A stretch of DNA of 50,809 nt, taken from the sequence record NC_136442.1; one strand, written 5' to 3'. The DNA comes from a phage. The position numbers and the translations under genes were made by a program. The notes below the pieces were generated by a model, which saw only the letters and a program-made list of their open reading frames with translations, was not told the origin of the DNA and made no database searches. Shown piece after piece: positions 8,915-14,033 of this stretch (positions are counted from its first letter, which is position 1; every line of letters begins with the position of its first letter).

Positions 8915-11900
8915 ATGGCTAAATATATGATAAGTGGCAGTAAAGGGGGCGGTCAAAAGCCCTACGTGCCAAAAGAGATGGAAGATAACCTGATCTCGAT
9001 AAACAAGATTAAAGTTTTGCTGGCTGTATCTGATGGCGAGTGCGATCCAGATTTTACGTTGCGTGATCTTTATCTTGATGATGTTCCGGTTATTGCCAGC
9101 GATGGCACTGTTAACTACGAGGGAGTTACGGCTGAATATAGGCCAGGTACGCAGACGCAAGATTACATCCAGGGTTTTACTGACACATCAAGTGAGGTTA
9201 CAGTTGCCAGAGATATTACCGGAGACAATCCTTATGTTATTTCTGTTACAAATAAAAACCTATCTGCGGTAAGAATAAAGATCCTGATGCCAGTAGGCAT
9301 TAAAACAGAGGATAATGGCGATCTTGTTGGCGTAAGGGTTGAGTATGCCGTAGATATGGCTGTTGATGGCGGTTCTTATAGCGAGGTTATGAGAGATGTA
9401 ATTGACGGCAAGACAAGATCAGGATACGACCGCAGCAGAAGGATTGATCTTCCTAAGTTTGATGAGCGCGTTTTAATCAGGGTTAAGCGACTTACCCCAG
9501 ACAGCACATCTTCAAAGGTGACTGATAAAATCAAACTGCAAAGTTACGCTGAGGTTGTGGATGCAAAATTCCGTTATCCTCTGACTGGCCTTGTATTTGT
9601 AGAATTTGACAGCGAATTGTTTCCTACACAAATCCCTAACATTTCTATAAAAAAGAAATGGAAGATTATTAATGTGCCAAGCAACTATGATCCAATATCA
9701 AGAGAATATCACGGGTCATGGGATGGGACTTTTAAGAAAGCGTGGTCAAATAATCCTGCATGGGTTCTTTATGATCTGGTGACGAATCAGCGTTATGGGC
9801 TTGACCAGCGAGAGTTAGGGATACAGATCGACAAGTGGAGCTTATACGAGGCAGGCGTTTACTGTGATCAGAAAGTTCCAGACGGTAAGGGCGGTACAGA
9901 GCCTCGCTACCTATGCGATGTGGTGATTCAGAATCAAGTTGAGGCTTATCAGCTAATCCGTGACATTTGCTCAATCTTTCGCGGAATGAGCTTTTGGAAT
10001 GGTGAGAGCTTATCAATCGTGATTGATAAGCCGCGCGATCCATCATACGTGTTTACTAATGAAAACGTCATCAACGGTGATTTTCAGTACACAACCGCAA
10101 GCGAAAAAAGCATGTACACGCAATGTAATGTGACGTTTGACGACGAACAAAACATGTATCAACAGGACGTCGAGGGGGTTTTTGATACTGAGGCGGCATT
10201 ACGATTTGGATACAATCCAACAAGCATTACAGCGATCGGGTGTACACGCAGGAGCGAAGCGAATCGTCGAGGTCGGTGGGTTTTGAAAACAAACCTTAGA
10301 AGCACTACTGTAAACTTTGCTACTGGACTGGAGGGGATGATTCCATCCATAGGTGATGTGATTGCTATCGCTGATAATTTTCAGAGCAGCAATCTAACGT
10401 TAAATCTTTCGGGCCGAGTAATGGAAGTTTCAGGCTTGCAAGTTTTCGTTCCGTTTAAAGTTGATGCGCGTCCTGGTGATTTTATTATCATCAATAAGCC
10501 GGACGGCAAGCCAGTTAAGCGAACGATCTCAAAGGTGAGCGCGGACGGAAAAACCATTGAGTTAAATATTGGCTTTGGTTTTGATGTTAAGCCAGACACT
10601 GTTTTTGCGATTGACCGTACTGACCTTGCGTTGCAGCAATACGTTGTGACCACTATCAGCAAGGGAGATGACGAAAACGAGTTTACCTATTCAATCACGG
10701 CTGTGGAGTACGATCCGAACAAATACGACGAGATTGATTATGGCGTAAACATTGATGACAGGCCTACTTCAATTGTTCAGCCTGACGTGATGGCAGCGCC
10801 GGAGAATGTTCAGATCTCATCTTATTCTCGCGTCGTGCAGGGTGTTAGCGTTGAAACTATGGTTGTTTCATGGGATAAGGTTCCTTACGCATCGCTTTAT
10901 GAAATGCAGTGGCGAAAAGGTGATGGTAACTGGCTGAATACGCCGCAGACCGCTAACAAAGAGATAGAGGTAGAAGGAATTTATTCAGGCAACTACCAAG
11001 TAAGGGTGAGATCCGTTTCTGCAAGCGGTAACACTTCCCCGTGGTCAAAGATTGCAACAGCTACCCTGACAGGTAAAGTTGGCGAGCCAGGAGCGCCGAT
11101 TAATCTTACAGCTTCTGATAATGAAGTTTTTGGCATTCGTGTCAAATGGGGCATGCCGGAAGGATCTGGCGATACGGCTTACATTGAGCTTCACCAATCG
11201 CCAGATGGAACGGTGGAAAACTCAAGTTTGCTTACGCTGATTCCATATCCTCAATATGAGTATTGGCATAGCACGTTACCAGCGGGTAAAGTTGTATGGT
11301 ATAGAATCCGTAGCGTTGACAGGATCGGCAACGTTTCAGGCTGGACTGACTTTGTTCGTGGCATGGCGTCAGATGATGTTGAATCTGTTTTAGGCGACAT
11401 TCTTGACAAGATTTTTGATACCGAAGCTGGTCAAGAAATCAAAGAGAACGCCATAGACAGTGCCAACAAAATCAAAGACCAGGCGCAATCAATCATCCAG
11501 AACGCATTGGCAAATGATTCTGATGTTAGAGTTATGAAAAAGGAGAATGGGAAACGGAAAGCTGAATTTAGGCAATCTATACAGATGATTGCTGATGAAA
11601 CAGAGGCAAGGGTAACAGCGTTAACGCAATTAAAAGCAGAATTTGATGAGGAGATAACTAGCGAAGTAACAAGACTTGATCAGGCGATCGCAACAGAATC
11701 AGAAACGCGAGCAACAGCTATAGAGGAATTAAAATCACAGATTGGTGATGATATTCAGGGGCAGTTAACGAGAGTTGAGGAAGCGATTGCAAGCGAAACA
11801 GAAGCGCGCGTTTCTGCCGATACTGCATTAACGGCAAAGTTTGGTGATCTTGAGTCAGCACTTACTGAAAAACTTGATTCATGGGCTGGCGTTGATTCCG

Positions 11901-12340
11901 TTGGTGCTCAATATTCAATGAAGCTGGGCCTAACCTATAACGGTCAGCAGTACAGCGCCGGAATGGTTATGCAGTTAACGCAATCACCGCAAGGATTAAT
12001 ATCACAGATTCTGTTTGACGCTAACAGATTCGCGATCATGACAAGTTCTAGCGGCGGGGTATATACGCTTCCTTTCGTGGTTGAGAATAACCAGGTTTTC
12101 ATCAATAGCTTACTTGTGAAAGATGGTTCAATAACTAATGCTATGATTGGAAACTTTATTCAGTCAAACAATTTTGTTCAAAATCAGCAAGGTTGGAGGC
12201 TTGATAAAAACGGAATATTTGAAAACTACGGATCAACTCCAGGAGAGGGAGCTACTAAATTCACCAACGAAGGATTGAAGGTAAAAGATGCAAACGGAGT
12301 ATTGAGGGTTGAAGTCGGAAGGATTACCGGAAGCTGGTAA
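8915..12340 (+). CDS. host specificity protein J-like (central tail fibre / tip)
   Basis: About 1140 aa, last gene of the lambda-like tail tip cluster; start chosen at MAKYMISGSK. Confidence 0.8.
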   Translation: MAKYMISGSKGGGQKPYVPKEMEDNLISINKIKVLLAVSDGECDPDFTLRDLYLDDVPVIASDGTVNYEGVTAEYRPGTQTQDYIQGFTDTSSEVTVARDITGDNPYVISVTNKNLSAVRIKILMPVGIKTEDNGDLVGVRVEYAVDMAVDGGSYSEVMRDVIDGKTRSGYDRSRRIDLPKFDERVLIRVKRLTPDSTSSKVTDKIKLQSYAEVVDAKFRYPLTGLVFVEFDSELFPTQIPNISIKKKWKIINVPSNYDPISREYHGSWDGTFKKAWSNNPAWVLYDLVTNQRYGLDQRELGIQIDKWSLYEAGVYCDQKVPDGKGGTEPRYLCDVVIQNQVEAYQLIRDICSIFRGMSFWNGESLSIVIDKPRDPSYVFTNENVINGDFQYTTASEKSMYTQCNVTFDDEQNMYQQDVEGVFDTEAALRFGYNPTSITAIGCTRRSEANRRGRWVLKTNLRSTTVNFATGLEGMIPSIGDVIAIADNFQSSNLTLNLSGRVMEVSGLQVFVPFKVDARPGDFIIINKPDGKPVKRTISKVSADGKTIELNIGFGFDVKPDTVFAIDRTDLALQQYVVTTISKGDDENEFTYSITAVEYDPNKYDEIDYGVNIDDRPTSIVQPDVMAAPENVQISSYSRVVQGVSVETMVVSWDKVPYASLYEMQWRKGDGNWLNTPQTANKEIEVEGIYSGNYQVRVRSVSASGNTSPWSKIATATLTGKVGEPGAPINLTASDNEVFGIRVKWGMPEGSGDTAYIELHQSPDGTVENSSLLTLIPYPQYEYWHSTLPAGKVVWYRIRSVDRIGNVSGWTDFVRGMASDDVESVLGDILDKIFDTEAGQEIKENAIDSANKIKDQAQSIIQNALANDSDVRVMKKENGKRKAEFRQSIQMIADETEARVTALTQLKAEFDEEITSEVTRLDQAIATESETRATAIEELKSQIGDDIQGQLTRVEEAIASETEARVSADTALTAKFGDLESALTEKLDSWAGVDSVGAQYSMKLGLTYNGQQYSAGMVMQLTQSPQGLISQILFDANRFAIMTSSSGGVYTLPFVVENNQVFINSLLVKDGSITNAMIGNFIQSNNFVQNQQGWRLDKNGIFENYGSTPGEGATKFTNEGLKVKDANGVLRVEVGRITGSW

Positions 12341-12345
12341 AAAAA

Positions 12346-12368
12346 GGGGGCATAGCCCCCTTTAATTT
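12346..12368. terminator. bidirectional terminator between J and the leftward locus
   Basis: GGGGGC-ATA-GCCCCC hairpin flanked by A-run and T-run. Confidence 0.8.
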
Positions 12369-12982
12369 TAATCATAGTGTGATGCATTTATAACCAAAAC
12401 AGATGAGGCGGTGTAAATACCAACAGGTCCAGGGGTTTGTGCAACCTGCCTGGAAAAAGAGTAGATCCCGTTACCATACGCGGCAGCTTGAGACTCAAAA
12501 ATCATAAATCCACCTAAAGCCGGATTAGGTACAGAGTTTAACGCTGTTAGTGATGGCATTATTGCGCAAGGGTAGCCCAGGTTAACATCAAACGCGATCC
12601 CGCTCACACCAACTTGCTTTGCATCAAGCGGCCTCATTTTTCCATGATAAACCATTTCACCATGAGCGTTATAAAACGCTATGCCGTGACTACCTGGAGG
12701 AGTCACCATGTTACTAAAAGCATAAACAATAACCTCCCCTTGATTATCAGATCTATCAATTCTTATTGCGTGCCTTCCGCCATTGTTAAATTGCGTAAAT
12801 GATATGTATGATTTAGCAGTCAATCTAACAAAGAAAAAACATACCCTATCAACAGGAATTGACGAAGTAAAAACGGTTCCGGTATTAGCAGATATTACGG
12901 CCCGATCAATTAGATTAACTGGAGTGAAATCTGGACTTAACCATAACGATCCGTCTGGTTTTTTTATACTCATCCCGTACAT
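12368..12982 (-). CDS. hypothetical protein, candidate receptor-binding protein (or C-terminal part of one)
   Basis: 204-aa ORF downstream of J on the opposite strand; ATG chosen after GGGGG RBS; a T5G5 run separates it from the upstream ORF in another frame. Confidence 0.5.
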   Translation of the reverse strand: MYGMSIKKPDGSLWLSPDFTPVNLIDRAVISANTGTVFTSSIPVDRVCFFFVRLTAKSYISFTQFNNGGRHAIRIDRSDNQGEVIVYAFSNMVTPPGSHGIAFYNAHGEMVYHGKMRPLDAKQVGVSGIAFDVNLGYPCAIMPSLTALNSVPNPALGGFMIFESQAAAYGNGIYSFSRQVAQTPGPVGIYTASSVLVINASHYD

Positions 12983-12984
12983 TA

Positions 12985-13263
12985 TCACCCCCAAAAAGTA
13001 TATATATATCTTGAATCAGATCCAGAAAGCCCACTCCATGTAACGGTGTCGCCACTTACCCCTAAGTTTGGCGCTCCAGGGTCGCCACCACGCCAGGAAT
13101 TCATGCCAACATATATTGCTTTCAATGATTTACCTGGTGGCCTGTTTTGGTAAGTCTTGCTACCTGATGGCTGAGTGAATTTATCAAGGAAGAAAACAGG
13201 CGTTAAAAGTCCTGTAACTTCCCTTCCTCGATCGTCATATATTGCATAACCATATTGCGCCAT
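12985..13263 (-). CDS. hypothetical protein (92 aa), possibly N-terminal part of a frameshifted receptor-binding gene
   Basis: GAGGTG RBS; ends in TGA inside a TTTTTGGGGG run just upstream of the next ORF. Confidence 0.5.
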   Translation of the reverse strand: MAQYGYAIYDDRGREVTGLLTPVFFLDKFTQPSGSKTYQNRPPGKSLKAIYVGMNSWRGGDPGAPNLGVSGDTVTWSGLSGSDSRYIYTFWG

Positions 13264-13532
13264 TAATTACACCTCAAATCAATAAATTTACTTTCATTTT
13301 GCCAACGGTTGATAAATTTAACTTCTTTATTGTCAACGCTCAACCTGTATTGCTTTTGGCTGAATCTGTTTTCGCGTACTGCATTAATTTTAACTTCATG
13401 GAATCCGTTAACAGGGAATGTTTTAACGTTAAATTTTGCCGTGCAGTCGATCTCATTGAAGTTGCCAGTAGGAGACGCTGCGCACCCGGTCAGAGCGGCT
13501 ACAGTGGCGATAACTGCGATTAATTTTTTCAT
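13263..13532 (-). CDS. lipoprotein, candidate superinfection-exclusion protein (Cor/Llp-like role)
   Basis: N-terminus MKKLIAVIATVAALTGC carries a lipobox; AAGGAG RBS 8 nt upstream of ATG at 13532. Confidence 0.6.
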   Translation of the reverse strand: MKKLIAVIATVAALTGCAASPTGNFNEIDCTAKFNVKTFPVNGFHEVKINAVRENRFSQKQYRLSVDNKEVKFINRWQNESKFIDLRCN

Positions 13533-13563
13533 CTTCAATACTCCTTAGTTGTCGTTGCCTGTA

Positions 13564-13606
13564 ACTATACACGATCCGACAAGCGGCGTTTAGCAAAAAG
13601 TGCTAC
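13564..13606 (-). promoter_or_regulatory. motif-type promoter cassette (variant GTAGCACTTTTTGCTAAAC, 18-nt spacer, TATAGT) for the lipoprotein gene
   Basis: Motif, spacing and -10-like hexamer read on the minus strand. Confidence 0.55.
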
Positions 13607-13975
13607 TTGTTATTTTTTGTTTTTCGGCGTTATCGAATTTAAGGCGGCGTAAATTTAGCGCAAATTTTAGCCAACATAAGGGCAATAAACAATCAATAAA
13701 ATAGATATATACATATAAAATCAATAGTTTATTTATTTATGTATGTATATTTGTTTTTTCTTGTTATCTGTGTTTCTTGTGGTTTTGGTTGTTTGTGGTG
13801 ATTTTTCTTTCTGAGTATCTGTATGTGCCATCATTCATGTGTATGTATATAATCCGGCGTATCTGAGAGAACAAGGGAACAAGAAAAATAACACATATTA
13901 ATCATTGACTTACGTTTCAAATTTGTTTTATTGCAATCTAAGAACGTTTAGAAAACAGAAAAAACAAAACAGCTA

Positions 13976-14003
13976 TTGACTAAATCAACCAAATGGCTAC
14001 AAT
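13976..14003 (+). promoter_or_regulatory. sigma70-type promoter TTGACT-16-TACAAT driving the exonuclease-Erf-SSB module
   Basis: Near-consensus -35 and -10 at correct spacing, 30 nt upstream of the RBS/ATG at 14034. Confidence 0.65.
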
Positions 14004-14033
14004 GCACACACAAAGCAACAAGGAGCATCAAAG

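Follow-up and report, generated by a model that had tools for sequence, protein, structure and literature searches.

The BASEL phages carry a 'bona fide RBP locus' (RBP, receptor-binding protein) downstream of gpJ, the allele of which correlates with the terminal receptor; the locus was treated as a unit and no split RBP was described (Maffei et al., 2021; PMC8594841). In phage Oekolampad, the RBP was solved bound to the extracellular side of LptD, with little order in its tail-proximal part, and the neighboring lipoprotein (Rtp45 in phage Rtp) is an exclusion factor (PMC12685063). Phage T5 places a monomeric RBP, pb5, on the tip of a trimeric central fiber, and the adjacent lipoprotein Llp blocks the receptor FhuA (PMC9586334). 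Finally, cor and the genes of an 'outer membrane protein' and a 'membrane-associated protein' were reported in 2026, in the description of phage KanT1, as a cassette of the FhuA-dependent phages T1, HK022, N15, ES18, and phi80; no structural matches were obtained for the two latter proteins, and a role in exclusion was suggested (PMC13164509). Here, we analyze a locus of this kind in a T1-like coliphage sequence of 50,809 nucleotides (nt; NC_136442.1), the whole of which we refer to as the window. Three leftward open reading frames (ORFs) lie downstream of J: a lipoprotein gene, ORF92, and ORF204, the latter two named for their products of 92 and 204 amino acids (aa). An original prediction had highlighted a T5G5 run at the ORF92-ORF204 junction and left open whether it represents a sequencing error, a phase-variable tract, or the border of two genuinely separate genes. 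Judged by its relatives, the flagged junction is a normal gene boundary, conserved and with a real gene on either side. Very probably, the window harbors a Warwickvirus-like receptor-specificity module in which these two coupled genes jointly provide the counterpart of an RBP that other small siphoviruses make as one chain of ~310-320 aa, here directed at BtuB.

All three ORFs and the T5G5 run were recovered from the sequence and the ORF list at the positions originally claimed. ORF92 (12985..13263, minus strand) ends in ACT TTT TGG GGG TGA, followed by the dinucleotide TA and the ATG of ORF204 (12368..12982, minus strand). The junction thus comprises the T5G5 run (12988..12997), the TGA, and a 2-nt spacer (12983..12997 in total, minus strand). 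The run is the sole T5G5 on either strand of the window, in which adjacent homopolymer pairs of at least 5+5 occur six times in all. ORF204 is read in the -1 (= +2) frame relative to ORF92, and not in the +1 frame as had been stated. The expectation that an indel in the run would fuse the ORFs into a protein of about 300 aa holds for a 1-nt insertion, yielding 298 aa, but not for a 1-nt deletion, which leads to a 115-aa dead end; the only other route to fusion is a 2-nt deletion (297 aa).

The two ORFs have the sizes of intact genes, and the division into two chains is preserved in all close and mid-distance relatives. A search of 5.8 billion proteins returned ORF204 homologues of 204-210 aa (14/14) and ORF92 homologues of 91-93 aa (8/8). 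Both proteins belong to separate PHROG families with profile lengths that fit the observed sizes, given the matches of ORF92 to phrog_557 (E = 4e-20, profile length 100) and of ORF204, a protein of two beta-rich domains, to phrog_425 (E = 3e-49, profile length 224). The two genes are neighbors in 277-299 phage records from Drexlerviridae, Dhillonvirus, Queuovirinae, and Stx podophages. Since members of the ORF92 family always end in ...IYT[F/Y]WG, followed by the stop codon, the T5G5 run merely reflects Thr-Phe-Trp-Gly codons. We compared the junctions of ~90 loci from IMG/VR and GenBank that cover 39-72% protein identity. A stop directly after W-G is retained in all but one of them (L037), and the T-run is lost in relatives that use TTC, TAC, or TAT for the Phe/Tyr codon, leaving only the W-G codons and the stop. 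Spacers to the next ATG measure -1 (ES18), 0 (Bas05), 1 (Bas06), 2 (window, JenP1), 3 (locus L006), or 5 nt (Stx phages), and all three frame relations are therefore represented. One junction variant reads TGGAGGTGA, a near-consensus Shine-Dalgarno sequence. Closer to the window, an 81-nt junction query aligned without gaps in all 60 records among the matches listed (of 66), 81-to-81 nt with four cases of 80-to-80, and a pattern search of IMG/VR that permitted 8-12 nt between the flanking sequences retrieved nothing but 10-nt tracts (2/2 matches). In sum, no tract-length polymorphism was found among close relatives in at least 60 phage records and two IMG/VR contigs. The exceptional locus, L037, belongs to an Stx-type prophage (IMGVR_UViG_2630968342_000010, position ~2981) with a TGA-to-GGA change at the end of its ORF92-like gene (TGGGGGGGAGTTGTATG); its small ORF therefore reads on out of frame, which could indicate a pseudogene or a sequencing error.

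The joint function of ORF92 and ORF204 is suggested by homologues that combine both parts in one chain. When 1.84 billion cluster representatives were searched exhaustively with a profile, we recovered 126 relatives, most of them 200-235 aa long, as well as ~12 clusters of 307-325 aa in which the ORF204-like part begins at around residue 100. In the single chains, residues 15-79 match the ORF92 family (94.9% probability, E = 5e-8; hhalign) and residues 101-311 the ORF204 family (99.4%, E = 5e-22; profile-profile comparison). The concatenated ORF92 and ORF204 sequences are colinear with them from end to end at 21-25% identity, with the stop, spacer, and start of the window falling into a linker that is ~9 residues longer in the single chains. 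These genes reside in prophages of Pantoea, Erwinia, Pseudescherichia, Enterobacter, and relatives, and include gp23 of Pantoea phage Vid5. They are located directly after a full-length J homologue, on the J strand, at 80/80 IMG/VR loci (tblastn), and a convergent small lipoprotein gene is present at 61/96 single-chain loci. In ES18 and Bas05, the two-gene pair itself is found inside the tail operon, directly after J.

Structural models point in the same direction. The ORF204 model matches the fold of a solved phage RBP (9rpt_C) over 146 aligned residues, and 207 residues are aligned to the same structure when the model of a single-chain homologue is used. The latter model also suggests how the ORF92 and ORF204 chains may pack against each other. 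According to Foldseek searches against BFVD, the fold recurs in uncharacterized proteins of many Proteobacteria phages, in versions of ~205-260 aa and ~310-335 aa. Neither ORF92 nor ORF204 contains a signal peptide or a transmembrane-like segment (maximum 19-residue Kyte-Doolittle values of 0.55 and 1.28, respectively), so the PHROG names of families 557 and 425 look unfounded; both proteins are modeled as soluble all-beta folds. Pfam, PADLOC, and PDB sequence searches returned nothing useful, and a test for sequence or fold similarity of the RBP candidate to T5 pb5 was negative. The notion of one ~300-aa protein, while wrong for the window if understood as a broken gene, does have an evolutionary basis in the single-chain homologues and in the 321-aa LptD-binding RBP.

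The receptor can be predicted from typed relatives. According to the BASEL S5 Table, the terminal receptor is BtuB for Bas04 and for Bas06 (Hanrivervirus), and FhuA for Bas05 (Warwickvirus; PMC8594841). Bas04 has the layout of the window, and its lipoprotein, ORF92, and ORF204 counterparts are 97.8%, 98.9%, and 100% identical (the last being bas04_0023). Bas06 likewise displays the three genes on the minus strand, with identities of 54%, 72%, and 66% in the same order. The corresponding values are 27% for each of the three proteins in Bas05 and 28%, 18%, and 27% in ES18, which is also FhuA-dependent; in both phages, the pair is located on the J strand and cor is convergent. Given the near-identity to Bas04, the resemblance to Bas06, and the ~27% identity to Bas05, the window carries the BtuB-type allele, which by these comparisons is a remote homologue of the FhuA-type pair, and the receptor of the window phage is most likely BtuB. 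FhuA had first been suggested by the KanT1 cassette (PMC13164509), but was dropped in view of the BASEL S5 Table (PMC8594841). We also considered co-variation of the J C-terminus with the RBP type; the difference was too small to be informative and the approach was rejected.

The lipoprotein gene (13263..13532, minus strand) encodes 89 aa beginning with MKKLIAVIATVAALTGC. The protein contains a hydrophobic signal segment and reads MKKLIAVIATVAALTG-C, with the lipobox LTGC and Ala at position +2. It matches phrog_1119, 'Cor superinfection exclusion protein', over its full length (E = 1e-7) and Pfam LPAM_1 weakly, with an identity to FhuA-type Cor proteins of only 27-28%. By analogy to Llp and FhuA (PMC9586334) as well as Rtp45 and LptD (PMC12685063), it is presumed to be an outer-membrane superinfection-exclusion factor acting on BtuB. 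The proposal of a receptor-binding locus with a cognate exclusion lipoprotein downstream of J, which had been based on position, is hence supported by the Cor-family match, the BtuB-typed Bas04 allele, and the solved-RBP fold of ORF204. A similar pair without an upstream lipoprotein gene is found opposite J in Nonagvirus JenP1 (L084, 4717-5615; NC_029028.1) and JenP2, at 42-52% identity; some lineages therefore either do without the exclusion gene or carry it at another site.

The arrangement of the three genes suggests how the module could work. Judging from the gene overlaps and Shine-Dalgarno sequences, the lipoprotein gene, ORF92, and ORF204 would form, in this order, a single leftward operon the genes of which are translated in a coupled fashion. 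The G-rich end of ORF92 (GGGGGTGA) doubles as the Shine-Dalgarno sequence of ORF204, and translational coupling is the simplest account of the junction; a ribosome-binding site inside the end of ORF92 would favor co-ordinated synthesis of the two chains. Colinearity and fold similarity suggest that ORF92 and ORF204 assemble into a two-chain RBP equivalent to the single-chain RBPs. In this complex, ORF92 would form the N-terminal, probably tail-proximal part that attaches to the tip of J, and ORF204 would contribute the middle and distal domains, the distal part probably binding BtuB, the receptor indicated by the identity to Bas04. The lipoprotein, in turn, would be exported to the outer membrane and, as proposed by analogy to Llp-FhuA and Rtp45-LptD, act from the periplasm to block BtuB in infected cells.

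Several alternative explanations have to be weighed against a conserved pair of coupled genes. An error in sequencing or assembly, or a frameshift mutation of recent date in a single RBP gene of ~300 aa, would draw on the error-prone nature of homopolymers, on the clean 298-aa fusion produced by a 1-nt insertion in T5G5, and on the existence of ~320-aa single-chain homologues in other lineages. Yet the 10-nt tract and the two ORFs are identical in at least 60 independently deposited genomes, several phage families, with protein identities of 39-72% and differing junction sequences, retain the split and the stop after WG, and no fused homologue exceeds ~25% identity, which leaves this explanation with next to no probability. 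Hardly any more can be said for a phase-variable tract that switches by slipped-strand mispairing between two-chain and fused, or on and off, states. A double homopolymer of 10 nt that marks a gene boundary within a host-range locus, and is the only T5G5 of the window, is what one would look for, and a +1 slip would generate a fusion like the natural single-chain forms. Still, no length variant was seen in at least 60 phage records or the two IMG/VR contigs, the tract is accounted for by the conserved T-F-W-G codons, and the T-run is absent in more distant relatives (TTC, TAC, TAT), with Bas06 showing T4G5 and another spacer. Moreover, runs of five bases are short for efficient slippage. Of the possibilities raised by the original prediction, that of two genuinely separate genes is therefore the correct one, with homologues organized as two ORFs of these sizes and no variation of the tract in at least 60 assemblies. 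Programmed -1 ribosomal frameshifting at G GGG UGA, producing a minor ORF92-ORF204 fusion beside the separate chains, would agree with the -1 frame of ORF204 and with a Gly codon that can re-pair one base back in the P site while the stop occupies the A site. In addition, spacers of 2 and 5 nt, which correspond to one frame relation, are present in 83/87 loci of the BtuB-like/Stx clade with a small upstream ORF. These loci are, however, close relatives and hence not independent, and the apparently conserved -1 relation does not hold in Bas06 (1 nt), Bas05 (0 nt), or L006 (3 nt), all three frame relations occurring among homologous junctions (-1, 0, 1, 2, 3, and 5 nt). As there is neither a canonical X XXY YYZ heptamer nor a conserved frame relation, and one variant (TGG AGG TGA) lacks the G-run altogether, programmed frameshifting is not supported and we consider it very improbable.

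Two further alternatives accept the gene boundary and differ in the function of the products. In analogy to the T1/KanT1 cassette, ORF92 and ORF204 could be membrane-associated accessory factors that are absent from the virion and aid Cor in exclusion (PMC13164509). Co-transcription and translational coupling with the lipoprotein gene in the window, and the position of the pair outside the tail module in Cyrano-like phages, are compatible with such a role. We nevertheless judge it improbable: the proteins lack signal peptides and transmembrane-like segments, and their all-beta soluble models match a solved RBP. Furthermore, in ES18, Bas05, and 80/80 single-chain loci, the genes come after J within the tail operon and cor lies on the opposite strand, JenP1 and the Stx phages have the pair without any lipoprotein, and PADLOC does not report a match. 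Small chaperones are common next to fiber genes, and a more serious, though still unlikely, scenario is that ORF204 alone constitutes the RBP and ORF92 is a chaperone or assembly adaptor not kept at the tail tip. ORF204 by itself yields a strong RBP fold match, and a 2026 preprint describes such loci as comprising an RBP and, in addition, one or two 'accessory proteins'. On the other hand, an ORF92-equivalent domain is covalently built into the single-chain homologues and the Oekolampad RBP (RBP-Oeko), the alignment to 9rpt_C grows from 146 residues for ORF204 alone to 207 for the single-chain model, and ORF92 shares its N-terminal motif with both halves of ORF204.

Several observations weigh against a two-chain, BtuB-directed RBP docked on J, which we nonetheless consider the most probable interpretation. 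The foremost of these concerns Cyrano-like phages of ~108 kb: there, the pair has no J gene beside it, contrary to what a simple model of J-docked RBPs would predict. Similarity to RBP-Oeko at the sequence level is marginal: positions 94-193 of the ORF204-family hidden Markov model are colinear with residues 205-305 of RBP-Oeko at E = 1.5e-4 in a single-sequence search, hhalign assigns RBP-Oeko a probability of at most 1.5%, and a PDB profile search gave no match. The argument for common descent with the LptD type therefore draws mainly on fold and synteny. Likewise, the C-terminus of J shows no clear co-variation with the RBP type (68% vs 76% identity over the last ~40 residues), and Stx phages and JenP1 carry the ORF92/ORF204 pair without the lipoprotein. 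Finally, the BtuB assignment derives from homology to Bas04, and the binding of ORF92 to ORF204, their docking on J, their presence in the virion, the domain contacting BtuB, and the exclusion function of the lipoprotein are inferred. In Cyrano (L083, 4717-5615; OV696614.1) and PhiR41_1 (PV340561.1), the pair displays 39-50% identity and is part of an accessory region with TciA/TciB-like and Ead/Ea22-like genes. Stx podophages, such as Shigella phage 75/02 Stx (L082, 5004-5905; NC_029120.1) and ~100 Stx-converting records, have a pair of 45-52% identity with a 5-nt spacer, located between a 'tail fiber protein' gene, which it immediately follows, and lom, and no Cor-like lipoprotein.

A short repeated motif links the two chains. 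The motif, [YWH]G-x-x-hydrophobic-aromatic-[ND]-x-x-G, covers ~22 residues and occurs at three sites, i.e. the N-termini of ORF92 and ORF204 and around residue 98 of ORF204 (hhalign probability 66-81%, E about 1e-5). When all 266 open stretches in the window were scanned with the motif profile, these three sites were the only matches. An apparent likeness of the J tail to the motif (GWRLDKNG, VKDANGVLRV) was rejected because the scan did not return J, and an internal repeat of full domains in ORF204 was rejected as well, hhalign detecting a motif of ~22-35 residues and no whole-domain similarity. The low-confidence parts of the single-chain model coincide with the motif segments (residues 1-20, 94-118, and 205-217), which would fit segments that become ordered only upon binding of a partner. 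It is tempting to speculate that each of the three segments may dock onto one chain of a J trimer, resulting in a pseudo-threefold adaptor that connects a trimeric fiber to a monomeric receptor binder. On this view, the BtuB- and FhuA-type pairs of T1-like, lambda-like, and Stx phages could be two-chain versions of an ancient RBP with three modules, each beginning with the motif, and this RBP would be preserved as a single chain in the LptD-binding phages (Oekolampad/Rtp) and in Pantoea/Erwinia prophages, implying a common origin of families deemed unrelated; we regard this as possible but rather doubtful.

The region is 99.8% identical to phage NorthRox and 97.9% to BASEL phage Bas04 FritzSarasin (Warwickvirus, Drexlerviridae), and relatives are annotated with the same three coding sequences of 615, 279, and 270 nt. 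The lipoprotein stop codon and the ORF92 start codon overlap (TAATG). At the other end of the lipoprotein gene, a Shine-Dalgarno sequence (AAGGAG; 13541..13546, minus strand) is located 8 nt 5' of the ATG at 13532, which is why we prefer this start over the TTG at 13538; the resulting 270-nt coding sequence is likewise annotated in Kalemo and Bas04. On the plus strand, 8915..12340 of the ORF list encodes the gpJ-like central tail fiber or tail-tip protein of 1141 aa, the presumed docking partner of the RBP, for which Bas04 and Kalemo carry the annotation J-like tail tip protein. J (end at 12340) and ORF204 (end at 12368) are convergent, an arrangement shared by Bas04, Bas06, and Bas18. A GC-rich hairpin (AAAGGGGGCATAGCCCCCTTT; 12343..12363), identified by sequence inspection, a terminator scan, and minus-strand read-out, separates the two stop codons and is followed by a T-run as read on the minus strand; it is likely a shared terminator for both directions. 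Between the lipoprotein gene and a rightward exonuclease VIII-like gene lies an AT-rich intergenic region of ~500 nt (13533-14033), for which three tiny coding sequences are annotated in Kalemo. Sigma-70-like sites in this region occur on the plus strand only (13825-13853 and 13976-14003); a search of the minus strand for a sigma-70-like promoter 5' of the lipoprotein gene was negative, with no more matches than in shuffled sequence.

What, then, does the locus add to previous work? The flagged junction itself matters little, since it is a normal coupled gene boundary in a published locus that has been BtuB-typed in a sister phage. That this locus correlates with the receptor has already been published, too, and reading it as a two-chain RBP is a modest but useful addition. 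A limited literature search retrieved no statement joining the BtuB/FhuA pairs, their single-chain counterparts, and the fold of the LptD-binding RBP. For the window phage, BtuB rather than FhuA is the receptor to expect. Receptor swaps among small siphoviruses should transfer ORF92 and ORF204 together with the lipoprotein gene, as the two chains correspond to one protein elsewhere. Relating the split pairs to the single-chain homologues and to the LptD-binding RBP of known structure also provides a structural template for the uncharacterized BtuB and FhuA binders of T1-like phages.

Compared with known systems, the window is closest to Bas04 FritzSarasin (bas04_0023 to bas04_0025), a sister phage with the same allele in which position, genes of 89, 92, and 204 aa, and junction are alike (PMC8594841). 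Bas06 KarlJaspers shares the gpJ-convergent position and the three genes at 54-72% identity (PMC8594841). The FhuA cassette of T1, N15 (gp22/gp23/cor), HK022, phi80, ES18 (gp30/gp31/cor), and Bas05 also combines a pair of ~100 and 200-217 aa with Cor beside J; its proteins belong to the same PHROG families (phrog_557, phrog_425, phrog_1119), and ES18 gp30 and gp31 contain the repeated motif. It differs from the window in its protein identity of about 27%, the location of the pair on the J strand in the tail operon with cor convergent, FhuA as the receptor, and a spacer of -1 or 0 nt. T1-like RBP loci are also present in three GenBank entries of 47-50 kb labeled 'Campylobacter phage', namely MG065681 (A139), MG065643 (E6), and MG065640 (A14b), with 65-72% identity to the window pair or, in A14b, of the FhuA type; these may be coliphage-type genomes with a wrong host assignment. 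The post-J proteins of Pantoea, Erwinia, Pseudescherichia, and Enterobacter prophages, as well as Vid5 gp23, consist of one chain (307-326 aa) where the window has two. T5 pairs pb5 with Llp, and BF23 has a parallel pair of RBP and Llp with BtuB; the likeness of both to the window locus is one of functional analogy. The RBP of Oekolampad/Bas18 (PDB 9RPT chain C; homologous to Rtp44), in contrast, shares its fold with ORF204, and the Bas18 locus has the layout of the window, with a lipoprotein gene (bas18_0026) followed by the RBP gene opposite J. The Oekolampad RBP recognizes LptD instead of BtuB, has 12-16% sequence identity to its counterpart in the window, and is accompanied by a lipoprotein of unrelated sequence; the 321 aa that form one chain in Bas18 correspond to two chains of 92 and 204 aa in the window.

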